Positions 14,159 to 39,908 of a stretch of DNA of 64,000 bases are shown piece by piece (the stretch's first letter is position 1; each line of letters begins with the position of its first letter). The notes below the pieces were generated by a model. That model was not told the DNA's origin and did not search any database. It worked only from the letters and a program-made list of their open reading frames with translations. Source of the DNA: a phage; the sequence record PZ386974.1. One strand, 5' to 3'. The position numbers were made by a program, and so were the translations under genes.

Positions 14159-14374
14159 TTACCCCAGTTTAACCATGCAATCGCCGTATTTCCATTTAGA
14201 AATAGACTTTTCGCCATTAGAATAATAAACTTCGAGTTTAGCACGATTATTTTTAATTTGAATAACCTTGGCTGTCATCAAAGTTCCATACCCATAGTAA
14301 ACTGCAACTTCATCACCTACATACACCGCGTTTCCACGGTAGTCATGGATATAATCAGTTCCTTTAAGCATCAT
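14159..14374 (-). CDS. Hypothetical protein
   Basis: 71 aa ORF overlapping nrdC by 4 nt. Confidence 0.5.
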   Translation of the reverse strand: MMLKGTDYIHDYRGNAVYVGDEVAVYYGYGTLMTAKVIQIKNNRAKLEVYYSNGEKSISKWKYGDCMVKLG

Positions 14375-14634
14375 TTAAAATATTCCCGCAGTTGATCAAA
14401 TCCACCGATCGAAGTTCCATCAGGAGCAAACACCTGAGGCATCGTCAACCCAACATGTGTTTCACGTCCTAGTTTATTCAGAAGCTCGTCAATTTTTTCT
14501 TCATCAAATACACCTTTCTCTGGCATCACGTTAATGAATTCGAACGGCTGTTTCTTAACAGTCAGCAATCGTTTCGCATTATCACAATAAATGCATTTAT
14601 GAATAGTAGAGTCATACCCGTACACTTTAAACAT
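14371..14634 (-). CDS. nrdC: Thioredoxin/glutaredoxin NrdC
   Basis: Track ORF 14371..14652; ATG at 14634 gives 87 aa MFKVYGYDSTIHKCIYCDNAKRLL... near-identical to T4 NrdC as recalled (CxYC active site). Confidence 0.92.
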   Translation of the reverse strand: MFKVYGYDSTIHKCIYCDNAKRLLTVKKQPFEFINVMPEKGVFDEEKIDELLNKLGRETHVGLTMPQVFAPDGTSIGGFDQLREYFK

Positions 14635-19438: not shown

Positions 19439-20417
19439 TTATTTCAGTAAAGTTACTTCGGAGATTTCCTCCCAACCATCTTTATCAGTTGAAATAAAAT
19501 CTGCTACATAAAGAGCCGTACGTAATGATACATTGCGAAGACGAGATACGTTAGCCTTCATCCAGGACAATGCTTTGTACGTTTCAGCATCAGTCAGACC
19601 ACGTTTCTGCATCATGTCAGTAGATAATATTACGTCTTCAACTCGAACCATAATCTCTTCATTAGAGTGTACTCCAAGGTCGAGATACACTGAACGAGAT
19701 ACTAAAGCTTGAAGGTGTGGGGCAAGTTTCGAACCACGTTCTAACTCTTTATCGATATCAACGTTTGTAATGAAAACGATAGTACCTTCAAACTCAAATT
19801 CTTTATCAATACCCTTATCATCAAGATAAGATGACGCAGTGCTCCAACAAACTTTGCGTTTATCTCCGGTATCTAATGCTGCTTTAAGAAGGTTCAAGAT
19901 ATCCATATCAGAGAATACATCAACATCGTCGATTAAGAGAACGCTGTCTGCATCACGGTTGAGCCAAAGTTGTTCGTAAAGGCCGATACCAGAGATTTTA
20001 CCATTAATGCTTTTGTATTTGATGAAACCATTATCATTAGCATTATTAAGTGCTTTATCCAGAGAATACGTCTTACCAATACCGGCTGCACCTGAAATGA
20101 TGAGTGAACGAATTTTGCCATCGATAATGCCATTCGTCATCATGTTCATTACTTTAAAGCGTTTGTTGATACGAGTTTTCATATCTTCAGTGCTTTCAAC
20201 AACTGCAACTGGTGATGTCTCAACTCCTTCCATTACGATGTCTGATTTGAAGACCCATACTCCACGTTCAGAACCATCAATCATAACGAAAATTTTACCA
20301 TCACCTAAGTGGGAACATTCAGGATTAAGCTTTGCTGGGAACCATGTCTTTGTGGCGACATAAGAACCAGAGATTTCGTTATTACGATAGATACCTTTTT
20401 TGATTTGAACGTTGAAC
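19439..20417 (-). CDS. Hypothetical P-loop NTPase
   Basis: Walker A GAAGIGKT and Walker B LLIDDVD; track start 20440, but the ATG at 20417 has a strong GGAGA Shine-Dalgarno. Confidence 0.55.
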
Positions 20418-20516
20418 ATTTTATTCTCCAATTTACTCATTTCGTTTCGATAGGTCTATAATAACATATCCTAAAAGCATGTACACTACTTTTTAAAAAT
20501 ATTTTAACCCCCTAAA

Positions 20517-20532
20517 GGGACCCGAAGGTCCC
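20517..20532 (-). terminator. Hairpin GGGACC-UUCG-GGUCCC downstream of the 20538..20819 gene
   Basis: Perfect 6 bp GC stem with UUCG loop; the following U tract is interrupted. Confidence 0.4.
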
Positions 20533-20537
20533 CACAT

Positions 20538-20819
20538 TTACTTATCGCACTTAGCAACATAATTAGGCATATCACAGAATACGGAGCGAGTAACTACTCG
20601 ACCCTTTGACCATGCTTCAGTTGCTTGTCCGGCAGTGCTATTAATATAGCTTGATTTGATATTCTCAATACCCTGAGAATGTGATGCATTTACCGAACCG
20701 TTGGAAGGCCCAGAAGACTGGTTACCACCAGCTCCTGCACTACCGCTGGCTGCACCCGTGGTAGCACCAACAGAGAACGCCATCATTACTGCGAATAAAC
20801 CAATTACTAATTTTTTCAT
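20538..20819 (-). CDS. Hypothetical secreted Gly/Ser-rich protein with signal peptide
   Basis: N-terminal MKKLVIGLFAVMMAFSVGA, then a G/S/A-rich low-complexity region and two C-terminal cysteines. Confidence 0.5.
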   Translation of the reverse strand: MKKLVIGLFAVMMAFSVGATTGAASGSAGAGGNQSSGPSNGSVNASHSQGIENIKSSYINSTAGQATEAWSKGRVVTRSVFCDMPNYVAKCDK

Positions 20820-20850: not shown

Positions 20851-21840
20851 TTATTTATAGTAAGAATTATGATTTTCGAGATAGACTTGCTCAAGGAAAT
20901 CATCCCAGAAACTCATATCTACTTTTTGTTGCATACCGTTCTTAGCGGCTTGTTCTGATGCTTGTTCAACTTGGTCAACGATATCTTCTAGGAATTCTTG
21001 TACAGTTTTAAACGTATGTTTACCAAGCTTAACATCGAGAATAAATGGAGCATCCTGAAGCGGGTAAACCAGGTCACCGGTTTTGTAAATTTCCAATAAT
21101 TGAAGTCCACCACGACATGCATGACTCAATGCTTTCCAGTCAATACCTTCGTTGGCTTCCGCCTTACGAGCACGTTCACCATAGTTCTCTTCCAGTTTAA
21201 CCAGGATGGCATTGAACTCTTTATTGGTTAACGTGTCTTGGAATTTACGGTCCAACAGATTATAGAATGTTTGCTTACCTGTTTTCTCGTTTTCGGTTTC
21301 AACCCACGAAGCAAATTCACCTACAGGCAGAACATTCTTCATATGTGATAAACGAATTACTGCACCATTATCAAAGTATTGTCCCCATTCATTAGAACGT
21401 TTAAGGGCTTGTCGAAGAACAGCCAGTCGAGAACCCTTGACACCGTATTTAGAAGCTTGCTTACGGACATACCCTAAATAAGATTTCATGTTAGTGGTAT
21501 AGAAACGAGACCTGTTATCTTGAATATACTTCCATACATCAGGCAAATCAGATTTAACTACTAGACTTTGTGGAGTGTGAAGCATATCTAATGCGACGGT
21601 TTCACCATCTGCAGCTAGTTTAAAGAAATATTTGAGACTATATAACTCATGGTCCACGTCGTCTTTTGTGTTCTTAGAAGATGTGTTATTCGTGTTCTTG
21701 CTCATATGTTCTTTAACGTTACCGGTCAAGATATCACGAGCATGAGGGACATAAATTTCTTTAAAATCAACGTCAGATTCTGGGGTAGACGTTCCATAAA
21801 GGTGGCTACCAAAGTAGCCTTTCATAATTGTTTTCATCAT
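20851..21840 (-). CDS. Predicted nucleotidyltransferase-fold protein (Pol-beta-like NTase motif)
   Basis: N-terminal GSHLYGTSTPESDVDF (GS-x10-DxD) and downstream VALDMLH acidic residue; 329 aa. Confidence 0.5.
   Translation of the reverse strand: MMKTIMKGYFGSHLYGTSTPESDVDFKEIYVPHARDILTGNVKEHMSKNTNNTSSKNTKDDVDHELYSLKYFFKLAADGETVALDMLHTPQSLVVKSDLPDVWKYIQDNRSRFYTTNMKSYLGYVRKQASKYGVKGSRLAVLRQALKRSNEWGQYFDNGAVIRLSHMKNVLPVGEFASWVETENEKTGKQTFYNLLDRKFQDTLTNKEFNAILVKLEENYGERARKAEANEGIDWKALSHACRGGLQLLEIYKTGDLVYPLQDAPFILDVKLGKHTFKTVQEFLEDIVDQVEQASEQAAKNGMQQKVDMSFWDDFLEQVYLENHNSYYK
20852..20859 (-). promoter_or_regulatory. Late promoter-like TATAAATA (minus strand) upstream of the 20538..20819 gene
   Basis: Exact TATAAATA about 33 nt upstream of the ATG. 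Confidence 0.4.
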
Positions 21841-22310
21841 TTAGCCTTATATTCAAGAGTAGGACAGACTTTTTCTTTACGAGCTTTAAGGTATTCACCT
21901 ATTAATGATTTCTTACGTTCAATAGGCGCAAGTCCATTTTTAATTCGTTCTTGGTTTTGTGCAATGAGCTCAATTTCTTTATAATATTTTCTGTCGTTAT
22001 ATTTGTCTAACAACCAAGACGGACCAATTACCGCCCCGACAGCAATAAGAACCATTACTGATATTGTTAAAATGCCTATACCAATTGAAGCAGGAACTAA
22101 TGTCCATAAACTACTAAAGACAAAGAATTTAGTTAAAATTTCTTGGCCAATGATTGCGGCACCTGCTAAAGTTGCAAATCCAACAATTGAAACAGCCAAT
22201 ACCGGAATAAACGTTTTCCAAAAATAAGCACATAATGTTTTCGGACGATTCCATGTACTATTGAACGTGGCATAAATTTTAAAGTGCCAAGAGTTTTCAT
22301 TGATAATCAT
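21837..22310 (-). CDS. Hypothetical membrane protein
   Basis: 157 aa with several hydrophobic helices. Confidence 0.5.
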   Translation of the reverse strand: MIINENSWHFKIYATFNSTWNRPKTLCAYFWKTFIPVLAVSIVGFATLAGAAIIGQEILTKFFVFSSLWTLVPASIGIGILTISVMVLIAVGAVIGPSWLLDKYNDRKYYKEIELIAQNQERIKNGLAPIERKKSLIGEYLKARKEKVCPTLEYKAK

Positions 22311-22319
22311 AATAATTCC

Positions 22320-22862
22320 TTATTTCAAAGTCGGGATAATAGAATCGAGATAAGCTTTAAGAGCAACTGCTTCATCTTTGTCTAATGTAATGATATGTTG
22401 ACGAAGGTCGTCAATTTGACGAATAACTACAACATCACCGTCTTCATAAGAAGGATTAACGCTCAGGACTGTTGTATAGTCAGGGTTGTCCTGATTTGTA
22501 ATAAAAGCATTACGACATTTAGCCCATTGAAGTTTGGCCTTTTTGGCTGTTTCAGATTCCATGAATTCTTTCACTTTAGCGACGAATGTTTTCCAATTAT
22601 TAATAGAAAAACATTCGTCTTCTGTTTCGATATTAACCCCACTATAAAGTCCGTGATAAAAACGAACTTGAAGGTCTTCATCAATGTTAATTACAGATGC
22701 ATGGCCTGGTGGATTGAGTTTCAAAATCTTGTCCAGTTCCATAGGAAGAATAGTAACAGCATCATCTTCTTGCGTCAGAACGTAAGCATAACCGCGTTTT
22801 TCAATACATAAATCACCAAACAATTCAGTTGTTTCAATTACAGTTTTCATATTATTCACCAA
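22320..22862 (-). CDS. Hypothetical protein
   Basis: 180 aa ORF. Confidence 0.5.
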   Translation of the reverse strand: MVNNMKTVIETTELFGDLCIEKRGYAYVLTQEDDAVTILPMELDKILKLNPPGHASVINIDEDLQVRFYHGLYSGVNIETEDECFSINNWKTFVAKVKEFMESETAKKAKLQWAKCRNAFITNQDNPDYTTVLSVNPSYEDGDVVVIRQIDDLRQHIITLDKDEAVALKAYLDSIIPTLK

Positions 22863-24248: not shown

Positions 24249-24830
24249 TTATAACAACCCTGTCAAATCATTCCAATGCTTCCGGCATAATGACACGTAT
24301 CTATCAGTATCACCAATTTCAATTTGACTGCCATCTGTAATTGGAAGTCCGTCTTCCGTGACTCTAGCTACCATTGTGGCCTTTTTACCACAATGACAGA
24401 CACCTTTAAGTTCAACAAGCTTATCGGCAATAGCCATTAATGCTTGAGAACCTTCAAATAGATTACCTTTAAAATCTGTTCGTAGTCCATATGCCATTAC
24501 TGGCACATTGTATACGTCAACAATACGACTAAGTTGATACACCTTTTCAGTAGTTAAGAACTGAGCTTCGTCAACAAATACACAATGAATATCCTTTTGT
24601 GCTGCAGCCCATTTATAGAATTCAAAGATGTCCATGTCTTTTGTAATTATATTGGCATCCTGACGAATACCAATACGAGAGACTATTTCACCTTTTGAAT
24701 CACGAGTATCAATAGCCGGTTTAAGAACTAATACACCCATGCCACGTTCTTTATAGTTATGTGCAGCAGTAAGTAATGAAGCAGACTTACCGGCATTCAT
24801 AGCGGCATATGTAAAAATTAAACTAGCCAT
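24249..24830 (-). CDS. tk: Thymidine kinase
   Basis: 193 aa; P-loop AAMNAGKS, VFVDEAQF, C-terminal zinc-binding CHCG...C motif. Confidence 0.92.
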   Translation of the reverse strand: MASLIFTYAAMNAGKSASLLTAAHNYKERGMGVLVLKPAIDTRDSKGEIVSRIGIRQDANIITKDMDIFEFYKWAAAQKDIHCVFVDEAQFLTTEKVYQLSRIVDVYNVPVMAYGLRTDFKGNLFEGSQALMAIADKLVELKGVCHCGKKATMVARVTEDGLPITDGSQIEIGDTDRYVSLCRKHWNDLTGLL

Positions 24831-39751: not shown

Positions 39752-39828
39752 TGGTCGAGACAGAAGGATTCTAACCTTCAACCTACGGATTAGAAGTCCG
39801 TTGCTCGATACAATTGAGCTATGCCTCG
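39752..39828 (-). tRNA. tRNA-Arg (anticodon UCU), CCA encoded
   Basis: Hand-folded cloverleaf: acceptor CGAGGCA/TGTCTCG, D-stem GCTC/GAGC, anticodon stem ACGGA/TCCGT with loop CUUCUAA, T-arm GAAGG-TTAGAAT-CCTTC. Confidence 0.75.
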
Positions 39829-39834
39829 AATATA

Positions 39835-39908
39835 TGACCCAGACCAGATTCGAACTGGTAACCTTTCCCTTATGAGGGGACTGCTGCTAACCATTGAGCT
39901 ACAGGGCC
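39835..39908 (-). tRNA. tRNA with CAU anticodon (Ile2-type as in T4, or Met)
   Basis: T-arm ACCAG-TTCGAAT-CTGGT, anticodon loop CUCAUAA, acceptor GGCCCTG/CTGGGTC with one mismatch; D-arm folds imperfectly by hand. Confidence 0.55.

Follow-up and report, generated by a model that had tools for sequence, protein, structure and literature searches.

Repair of PrrC-cut tRNA-Lys by the bacteriophage T4 enzymes Pnk and Rnl1 is the founding example of RNA repair, and nucleases of the RloC type have been proposed to defeat this repair by also excising the wobble nucleotide. The RlaP family of nucleotidyltransferases (NTases; Pfam PF10127) was reportedly named by Burroughs and Aravind in 2016. Here we describe a member of this family encoded at 20851..21840 on the minus strand of a 64,000-nucleotide stretch of phage DNA (sequence record PZ386974.1; the whole stretch is referred to below as the window). 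The gene is the Mosigvirus orthologue of T4 nrdC.11, and all coordinates given below are on the same strand. Among the RNA-end NTases of jumbo phages RlaP is the commonest, according to a comparative study in which its distribution followed that of RNA ligases and its predicted role was to put back nucleotides excised by RloC and similar nucleases (PMC7824862). T4 NrdC.11 is marked as a PF10127/RlaP member without an assigned function, in cluster 5 of a sequence similarity network, in a bioRxiv preprint of December 2025 (10.64898/2025.12.29.696909). The family, the membership of T4 NrdC.11 and the functional prediction are all in the literature; new in this analysis are the linkage to RNA-repair neighbours in viruses, the pairing of long and short RlaPs in bacteria, and the finding that T4-like phages carry the long form only. 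With a probability of about 0.6, we consider that the NrdC.11 orthologue extends the 3'-OH ends of broken RNAs, above all of tRNA halves, by nontemplated nucleotides, as a counter-defence accessory.

Two Pseudomonas RlaPs, PfRlaP of P. fluorescens and PaRlaP of P. aeruginosa, add 1-2 nucleoside monophosphates (NMPs) or deoxynucleoside monophosphates (dNMPs) to an RNA 3'-OH, prefer Mn2+ and are inactive on DNA and protein; the canonical RlaPs left E. coli proteins unlabelled (10.64898/2025.12.29.696909). In total RNA, RlaP also labels full-length tRNAs and rRNAs, and on a nicked-tRNA mimic PfRlaP prefers the 3' end of the 5' tRNA half. With a tRNA mimic that lacks one anticodon-loop nucleotide, RlaP treatment before ligation improves aminoacylation. 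The PfRlaP crystal structure consists of an NTase domain and a C-terminal helical domain, the last helix of which packs back onto the NTase domain (all from 10.64898/2025.12.29.696909).

The gene described here is an open reading frame (ORF) of 329 residues that, in the ORF listing of the window, fills 20851..21840 exactly from ATG to stop. Its translation starts MMKTIMKGYFGSHLYGTSTPESDVDF, and either of the first two methionines (MMKT...) could be the start, many records giving 328 residues. An earlier note, made from the letters of this DNA and a list of its ORFs, had pointed to the gene and quoted two motifs, both of which are present: GSHLYGTSTPESDVDF forms residues 11-26 and VALDMLH residues 82-88. 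The protein is 77.7% identical to T4 NrdC.11 over its full length, and the DNA of the ORF is 98-99% identical in many genomes of Mosigvirus (T4-like, Straboviridae). The Pfam profile PF10127 matches with 48.7 bits (gathering cut-off 23; E 1e-12), residues 7-140 aligning to positions 23-147 of 249, and close homologues all carry a precomputed PF10127 assignment. In PHROGs the protein falls into phrog_388, 'nucleotidyltransferase' (E 4e-126). Homologues were found by tblastn in 1521 phage records, 1450 of which cover at least 80% of the protein, and an exhaustive HMMER search returned 3264 representatives of 50%-identity clusters at E<=1e-3, with 745 at E<=1e-30. The nrdC.11-type gene is real, under selection and spread far beyond chance. 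The specific family, which the earlier note had left open, is RlaP by profile search, with the catalytic triad conserved in homologues. The Pol-beta-superfamily fold proposed there was borne out by the hG[GS] and [DE]h[DE]h motifs, a probable third carboxylate and the three-dimensional core.

Conservation was assessed in alignments of 139-144 full-length homologues of 34-52% identity, and the long and canonical forms were compared in a seven-sequence alignment including three canonical RlaPs (Deferribacter, Curtobacterium and the Asticcacaulis short form). The catalytic set of G11-S12, D23, D25 and D63 is at least 97% conserved in 139 diverse homologues. Within the hG[GS] motif (21805..21810) G11 is invariant and S12 is 99% conserved, both being invariant relative to the canonical RlaPs. 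The two aspartates of the [DE]x[DE] metal-binding motif, D23-V-D25 (21766..21774), are each 99% conserved and invariant in the seven-sequence alignment. D63 (21652..21654), in an hDh pattern at the start of strand 62-68, is 98% conserved and is the probable third catalytic carboxylate. This part of the motif had been read differently in the earlier note, in which the acidic residue of VALDMLH followed the G-S / D-x-D signature. That signature is conserved as described, whereas the VALDMLH residue, D85 (21586..21588; 97% conserved in the long form, in predicted helix 81-87), is probably not the third carboxylate. On sequence and model evidence D63 is most likely to fill this place, because it lies on a β-strand, is invariant in long and canonical forms and aligns to an RlaP aspartate. 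In hhalign D63 pairs with the 'LDL' aspartate of a canonical RlaP and D85 with a glutamate; this comparison of the family profile with a single canonical RlaP reached 21.6% probability and served residue pairing only, and the seven-sequence alignment agrees with it. Opposite D85, two canonical RlaPs have glutamate and that of Curtobacterium a non-acidic residue, and D85 is not included among the invariants of the seven sequences (G11, S12, G16, S22, D23, D25, D63, L87, R223 and D234).

Outside the catalytic set, the residues invariant among the 139-144 homologues are Y132 and R243, in addition to G11. In the NTase part S12, L14, Y15, G16, S22, D23, D25, K27, P32, N57, D61, D63, G79, D85 and W103 are at least 90% conserved, as are Y124, Q128, G136, Y220, G221, R223, D234, K236, S239, H240, P260, K271 and G273 in the helical part. 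N57 and D61 belong to a segment (KNTxxDxD) just upstream of D63 that is conserved in the long form. The C-terminal helical domain carries the motif D234-W-K236-x3-H240-x2-R243 (21112..21141; at least 90% conserved), the residues of which probably line an NTP (nucleoside triphosphate)/RNA-binding cleft, by analogy with the description of PfRlaP. From its conserved residues the NrdC.11 orthologue is predicted to be catalytically competent.

The AlphaFold2 model of the 329-residue protein is confident (mean predicted local distance difference test, pLDDT, 94.2; predicted template modelling score, pTM, 0.86) and shows an N-terminal NTase core joined to a helical domain. The core (residues 1-100; 21541..21840) contains strands 3-10, 24-31, 45-49 and 62-68 and helices 69-77 and 81-87, so that in the model the overall α/β NTase arrangement is present in three dimensions. 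F10 precedes G11, and G11-S12 sits between strand 3-10 and helix 12-15; D23-V-D25-F opens strand 24-31, D61/V62-D63-H64 opens strand 62-68, and D85 is found within helix 81-87. The remaining sequence, which the earlier note took to be about 250 residues of helix, is indeed mostly helical, but is interrupted in the model by a three-stranded β element at 177-201. This element is carried by an insertion of about residues 141-215 (21196..21420) that is typical of the NrdC.11 long form; it is delimited by the seven-sequence alignment and the model, begins where the Pfam match stops at residue 140, and is absent from the canonical RlaPs of 250-270 residues. The NrdC.11 orthologue belongs to a distinct 'long' RlaP subtype of about 325-335 residues.

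As modelled, the protein has the familiar build in which a minimal NTase is followed by a HEPN-like domain for substrate binding, which also bears on a different role. As a protein modifier of the MNT/MntA type it would AMPylate a HEPN ribonuclease of the host, such as an anticodon nuclease, and thereby neutralise it, with the HEPN-like C-terminal bundle serving for recognition. The MntA equivalog was the sole NCBIfam match, but with 12.9 bits it fell far under the 60-bit cut-off; PADLOC gave no match, and no HepT/HEPN toxin gene adjoins the NTase. The Rx4-6H nuclease motif of HEPN proteins is absent from the helical domain, where the conserved pattern is H240-x2-R243 instead. As canonical RlaPs left E. 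coli proteins unlabelled and the neighbours of relatives are RNA-end enzymes (see below), this role is considered quite improbable. A small-molecule NTase of the aminoglycoside or lincosamide type is suggested by fold matches to the ANT(4') kanamycin NTase, LinB and AadA. Foldseek searches of the PDB gave weak matches only (E >= 5e-3, TM score about 0.3), however, with no match to these families in sequence, and the ANT family, one of the homes proposed for checking in the earlier note, was not adopted. Antibiotic modification would in addition have no obvious use for a lytic phage. A catalytically dead structural remnant is hard to reconcile with catalytic residues at least 97% conserved across hundreds of divergent lineages, and together these two explanations can be given almost no weight. 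In BFVD the model matches viral 'nucleotidyltransferases' of jumbo phages, giant viruses and baculovirus HE65, the HE65 and giant-virus matches having E values of 1e-3 to 1e-7; RlaP-like enzymes may, judging from these models, be widespread in eukaryotic viruses too.

The relationship to RlaP can probably be extended over the whole protein, although the C-terminal third alone gives no RlaP profile match. A 338-residue Deferribacter plasmid protein is 25.6% identical to the NrdC.11 orthologue over 92% of its length and spans the RlaP profile end to end (2-246 of 249). A pattern scan of IMG/VR, built from a 5-sequence alignment, yielded 80 diverse viral loci (59 NTase clusters at 70% identity), and phmmer with either the Deferribacter protein or the 252-residue Curtobacterium RlaP recovers the long-form protein of every one (80/80). 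The entire protein can probably be tied to PF10127 because of this intermediate, the phmmer recovery and the common C-terminal motif, and through the intermediate sequence the C-terminal domain is likely homologous to that of RlaP.

For the 80 viral loci, ORFs were called, neighbours clustered and the recurrent clusters annotated. An RNA-end-healing or sealing gene is found in the flank of 36 of the 80 loci, and is three genes away or less in 29. The most frequent neighbour (18 loci, at +1 in 16) is an HD protein that stands alone; in NCBIfam it best matches the HD portion of the multifunctional CCA addition/repair protein (E 7.6e-8). RtcB is encoded at +3 to +6 of the NTase in 10 loci, on the same strand in 9. 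An Rnl1-type RNA ligase accompanies 5 loci (at -1 in 3), with an HD-plus-P-loop-kinase fusion at -2, and a Pnkp-type HAD phosphatase is encoded in 5 loci (at -1 in 4). Three IMG/VR loci (L079-L081) form a compact cassette of HD-phosphohydrolase/P-loop-kinase fusion (-2), Rnl1-type ligase (-1) and NrdC.11-type NTase (0), which looks like a complete heal-fill-seal RNA repair set in which the HD domain replaces the phosphatase of T4 Pnk. Ten further neighbour families that recur in the viral loci included nothing RNA-related (Mre11/Rad50-like, primase-helicase, KilA-N and unknowns). In some loci (L060, L068 and related IMG/VR loci) nicotinamide adenine dinucleotide (NAD)-salvage genes, namely NAMPT-like and a nicotinamide mononucleotide (NMN) adenylyltransferase-Nudix fusion, occupy +3 to +6 of the NTase, by linkage or coincidence. 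The association with RNA ligases or RNA-repair operons is observed for the long subtype, and not at the window locus.

The prominence of the HD protein raises the question of whether the same family and chemistry could act on another RNA end, rebuilding or tailing the 3' acceptor (CCA) end of tRNA or tailing other RNAs, in effect as a phage-type counterpart, in split form, of the multifunctional CCA addition/repair protein. Consistent with this, in Rheinheimera phage Barba31A the homologue follows a CCA tRNA nucleotidyltransferase gene at a distance of two genes, and RlaP also labelled full-length tRNAs and rRNAs in total RNA (10.64898/2025.12.29.696909). The linkage to RtcB, Rnl1 and Pnkp/Hen1, however, suggests substrates with breaks to be sealed, unlike a 3' acceptor end, and within the nicked-tRNA mimic PfRlaP favours the 5' tRNA half, at its 3' end (10.64898/2025.12.29.696909). 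Action at the acceptor end is judged unlikely.

Bacterial contexts were read in a plasmid collection and in contigs encoding homologues (L086, L090-L096). The Asticcacaulis long form, used as query, found many bacterial relatives, and in 7/7 bacterial loci read a long gene of 325-332 residues is followed by an overlapping canonical RlaP of 266-273 residues, in at least 5 different surroundings. The order on the Asticcacaulis plasmid is Hen1 - Pnkp - NrdC.11-like (38% identity) - canonical RlaP, and another order is RtcR - Ro60 - RtcB - long - short - RNase T; other pairs are located in defence-island-like regions with HipA, GmrSD and AbiEii. The long and short partners diverge in parallel (63% and 60% identity between L094 and L095, 68% and 51% between L086 and L096). 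This pairing bears on how RlaPs limit addition to 1-2 nucleotides, a point left open by the sole biochemical study. Among phage records just 78, most of them of jumbo phages, contain a short RlaP, and none was found in Escherichia phage records, the window or the 80 viral flanks. A tentative proposal, with the odds somewhat against it, is that the long RlaP is a functionally separate enzyme, forming in bacteria one half of an ancient co-evolving two-gene module whose two products would work as a heterodimer or one after the other, that T4-like phages captured only this long half, and that with Pnk and Rnl1 it makes up a possible three-enzyme counter-defence restoring the nucleotides removed by RloC-type anticodon nucleases.

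The mechanism favoured here, addition of nucleotides to broken RNA, would operate as follows. NrdC.11 would be made early in infection, as the T4 annotation of an early transcription unit implies. Catalysis by D23, D25 and D63 with two divalent metal ions, most probably of Mn2+, would extend the 3'-OH of a broken RNA by a single nucleotide or a few, taken from NTP and without a template. The chief substrate would be the tRNA halves produced by nucleotide-trimming anticodon nucleases of the host (RloC type), and the enzyme would act between the healing of the end to a 3'-OH by the phage enzyme Pnk and the resealing of the tRNA by Rnl1 or Rnl2. Genes for Rnl1, Pnk and Rnl2 are present at other places in the genome of a Mosigvirus whose orthologue is 98% identical. 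NrdC.11 would be a counter-defence accessory, and it is dispensable in laboratory hosts: T4 with a nrdC.11-mobD.3 deletion is viable (PMC9825161), and of the protein only residues 291-329 are left in a genome-reduced T4 record (tblastn). By analogy with its relatives, the putative RNA-repair role of NrdC.11 is well supported by context.

Several observations weigh against this interpretation. The figure of 36/80 is a raw count, not set against the background frequency of such genes. No RNA-repair gene adjoins nrdC.11 at the window locus or in T4, and there is no ligase or HD gene within the window. Counted by genus in phage records, homologues of NrdC.11 and of Rnl1 are nearly equal in number, but the comparison is confounded by shared descent within the Straboviridae. 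The assayed enzymes are short canonical RlaPs, to which the NrdC.11 orthologue is about 19-27% identical, and the Pfam RlaP profile matches only its N-terminal half. With an insertion of ~70 residues and the additional N57 and D61, the substrate or product of the long form could differ, and the phage long form may not do the same job alone as the bacterial pair. No experiment on NrdC.11 or any long-form RlaP was found in the literature. Finally, sequence searches of the PDB with the protein, the 139-sequence profile and an N-terminal-only profile matched no NTase, in a copy of the PDB that is without the PfRlaP structure.

If NrdC.11 does refill RloC-type gaps, it would supply a missing phage countermove in the tRNA arms race, and over 1500 sequenced phages, the best-studied one included, would have a function for this conserved gene. 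The three-enzyme counter-defence, if true, would reverse the loss of nucleotides that was long thought to make RloC-type damage irreparable for T4.

The window is ~37% G+C, and almost every gene around the nrdC.11 orthologue is on the minus strand. The gene lies between the nrdC orthologue (14374-14634) and the thymidine kinase gene tk (24249-24830), so its placing in the 'nrdC-tk region' by the earlier note was correct. Dozens of phage records call the nrdC.11-type NTase 'thioredoxin', a name apparently spread from the locus name nrdC.11; the protein at 20851-21840 has no thioredoxin-like Pfam match, and the real nrdC orthologue is the gene at 14374-14634. The gene string is headed by the orthologue of T4 mobD.1 (22320-22862; Pfam T4_y05I_N and T4_y05I_C, 'putative transcription factor'). 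This is followed by a gene for a 157-residue membrane protein (21837..22310; phrog_944) in the slot of T4 mobD, the TGA stop of which overlaps the ATG of the NTase (ATGA). The membrane protein gene forms one transcription unit with the NTase and is not a conserved partner. The last gene of the unit, downstream of the NTase, encodes a 93-residue Gly/Ser/Ala-rich protein with a clear N-terminal signal peptide (20538..20819; phrog_2243, weak YbgS-like match), and T4 has no gene at this place. A GGGGACC-UUCG-GGUCCC hairpin and U tract follow (20516..20533); with a folding energy of -13.9 kcal/mol and a z-score of -1.1 it cannot be told statistically from shuffled sequence and is weak on its own, and it is offered as terminator-like because T4 annotates a terminator at the same place (nrdC.11 / nrdC.10 early promoter). 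Beyond a promoter-like site lies the nrdC.10 orthologue (19439-20440; phrog_1250), encoding a P-loop (AAA/STAND-like) ATPase with a possible C-terminal helix-turn-helix. Two phage tRNA genes, tRNA-Arg(TCT) and tRNA-Met(CAT), stand side by side at 39752-39908 and may bear on tRNA-targeting host defences.

These neighbours were also considered as partners, a conserved partner gene having been one of the checks suggested in the earlier note. RNA-healing and sealing genes recur near the NTase in the viral loci, as described, and are lacking at the window locus. The upstream membrane protein was rejected, being confined to T4-like genomes and to 9/80 viral loci, at -2 or -3 in 8 and never directly adjacent; nrdC.10 was likewise rejected, as it accompanies the NTase only in T4-like genomes (6/80 loci). 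The translational overlap with the membrane protein gene had a bearing on one further explanation, that the NTase synthesises oligonucleotides or a second messenger in the manner of a CD-NTase or of Hailong HalB, perhaps working with this coupled protein, or mimicking a host signal to silence defence. CD-NTase/SMODS-type Pfam profiles gave no match at E<=1, and PADLOC none for the NTase or its neighbours at E<=0.1. Genes for a membrane protein, a secreted peptide and an AAA ATPase surround the NTase gene, with no CD-NTase-type effector among them, and such a synthase is highly improbable. By profile and neighbour evidence no support was found for membership of the CD-NTase, MntA or Hailong groups. 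The CD-NTase, MNT and CCA-adding families that the earlier note listed as possible homes were set aside, the PolyA_pol head profile (PF01743) of CCA-adding enzymes also failing to match the protein.

Among known systems, the nearest solved structures are Hailong HalB, ANT(4') and 3c18, which are 10-16% identical to the NrdC.11 orthologue, share no sequence family with it and have other gene contexts. HalB carries out dATP-only oligomer synthesis and ANT(4') acts on aminoglycosides; neither a specific similarity to HalB nor a conserved membrane effector partner of the HalA type was found. E. coli Cca is a template-independent RNA 3'-end NTase whose HD phosphohydrolase cleans 3' ends, and offers a functional analogy only: the 18 viral loci pair an NrdC.11-type NTase with a stand-alone Cca-HD-like protein, whereas the head of Cca is a class II PolyA_pol domain (PF01743) and the window is without an HD gene. 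Closer are the bacterial long-plus-short modules (Asticcacaulis, Dadabacteria-like and other genomes). Their long partner is the closest cellular relative (33-38% identity), with the same length and the same insertion, and one is annotated 'nrdC.11'; there, unlike in T4-like phages, which carry the long form only, an overlapping short RlaP follows the long gene in every locus read.

T4 NrdC.11 (38.9 kDa, between mobD and nrdC.10) shares with the gene described here its genome position, strand and (here putative) downstream terminator, followed by the nrdC.10 promoter, but has 336 residues in place of 329. The T4 order is mobD.1 - mobD - nrdC.11 - terminator - early promoter - nrdC.10, whereas the window has the membrane protein instead of the homing endonuclease mobD, and the extra 93-residue gene. 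Canonical RlaPs, such as those of P. fluorescens and P. aeruginosa, differ in being ~70 residues shorter, without the insertion and its β element at 177-201, and in lacking N57 and D61. They belong to the same Pfam family, have the same G-S / D-x-D / D catalytic set and occur in a similar genomic setting, with RtcB and 5'-P RNA ligase operons. All three aligned canonical RlaPs keep R223 and D234; the D-x-K-x3-H-x2-R motif is found in those of Deferribacter and Curtobacterium, and not in the Asticcacaulis short form as aligned. According to the model, the NrdC.11 orthologue also resembles PfRlaP in having an NTase domain and a C-terminal helical domain that ends in a long helix, with agreement in the order of secondary-structure elements.

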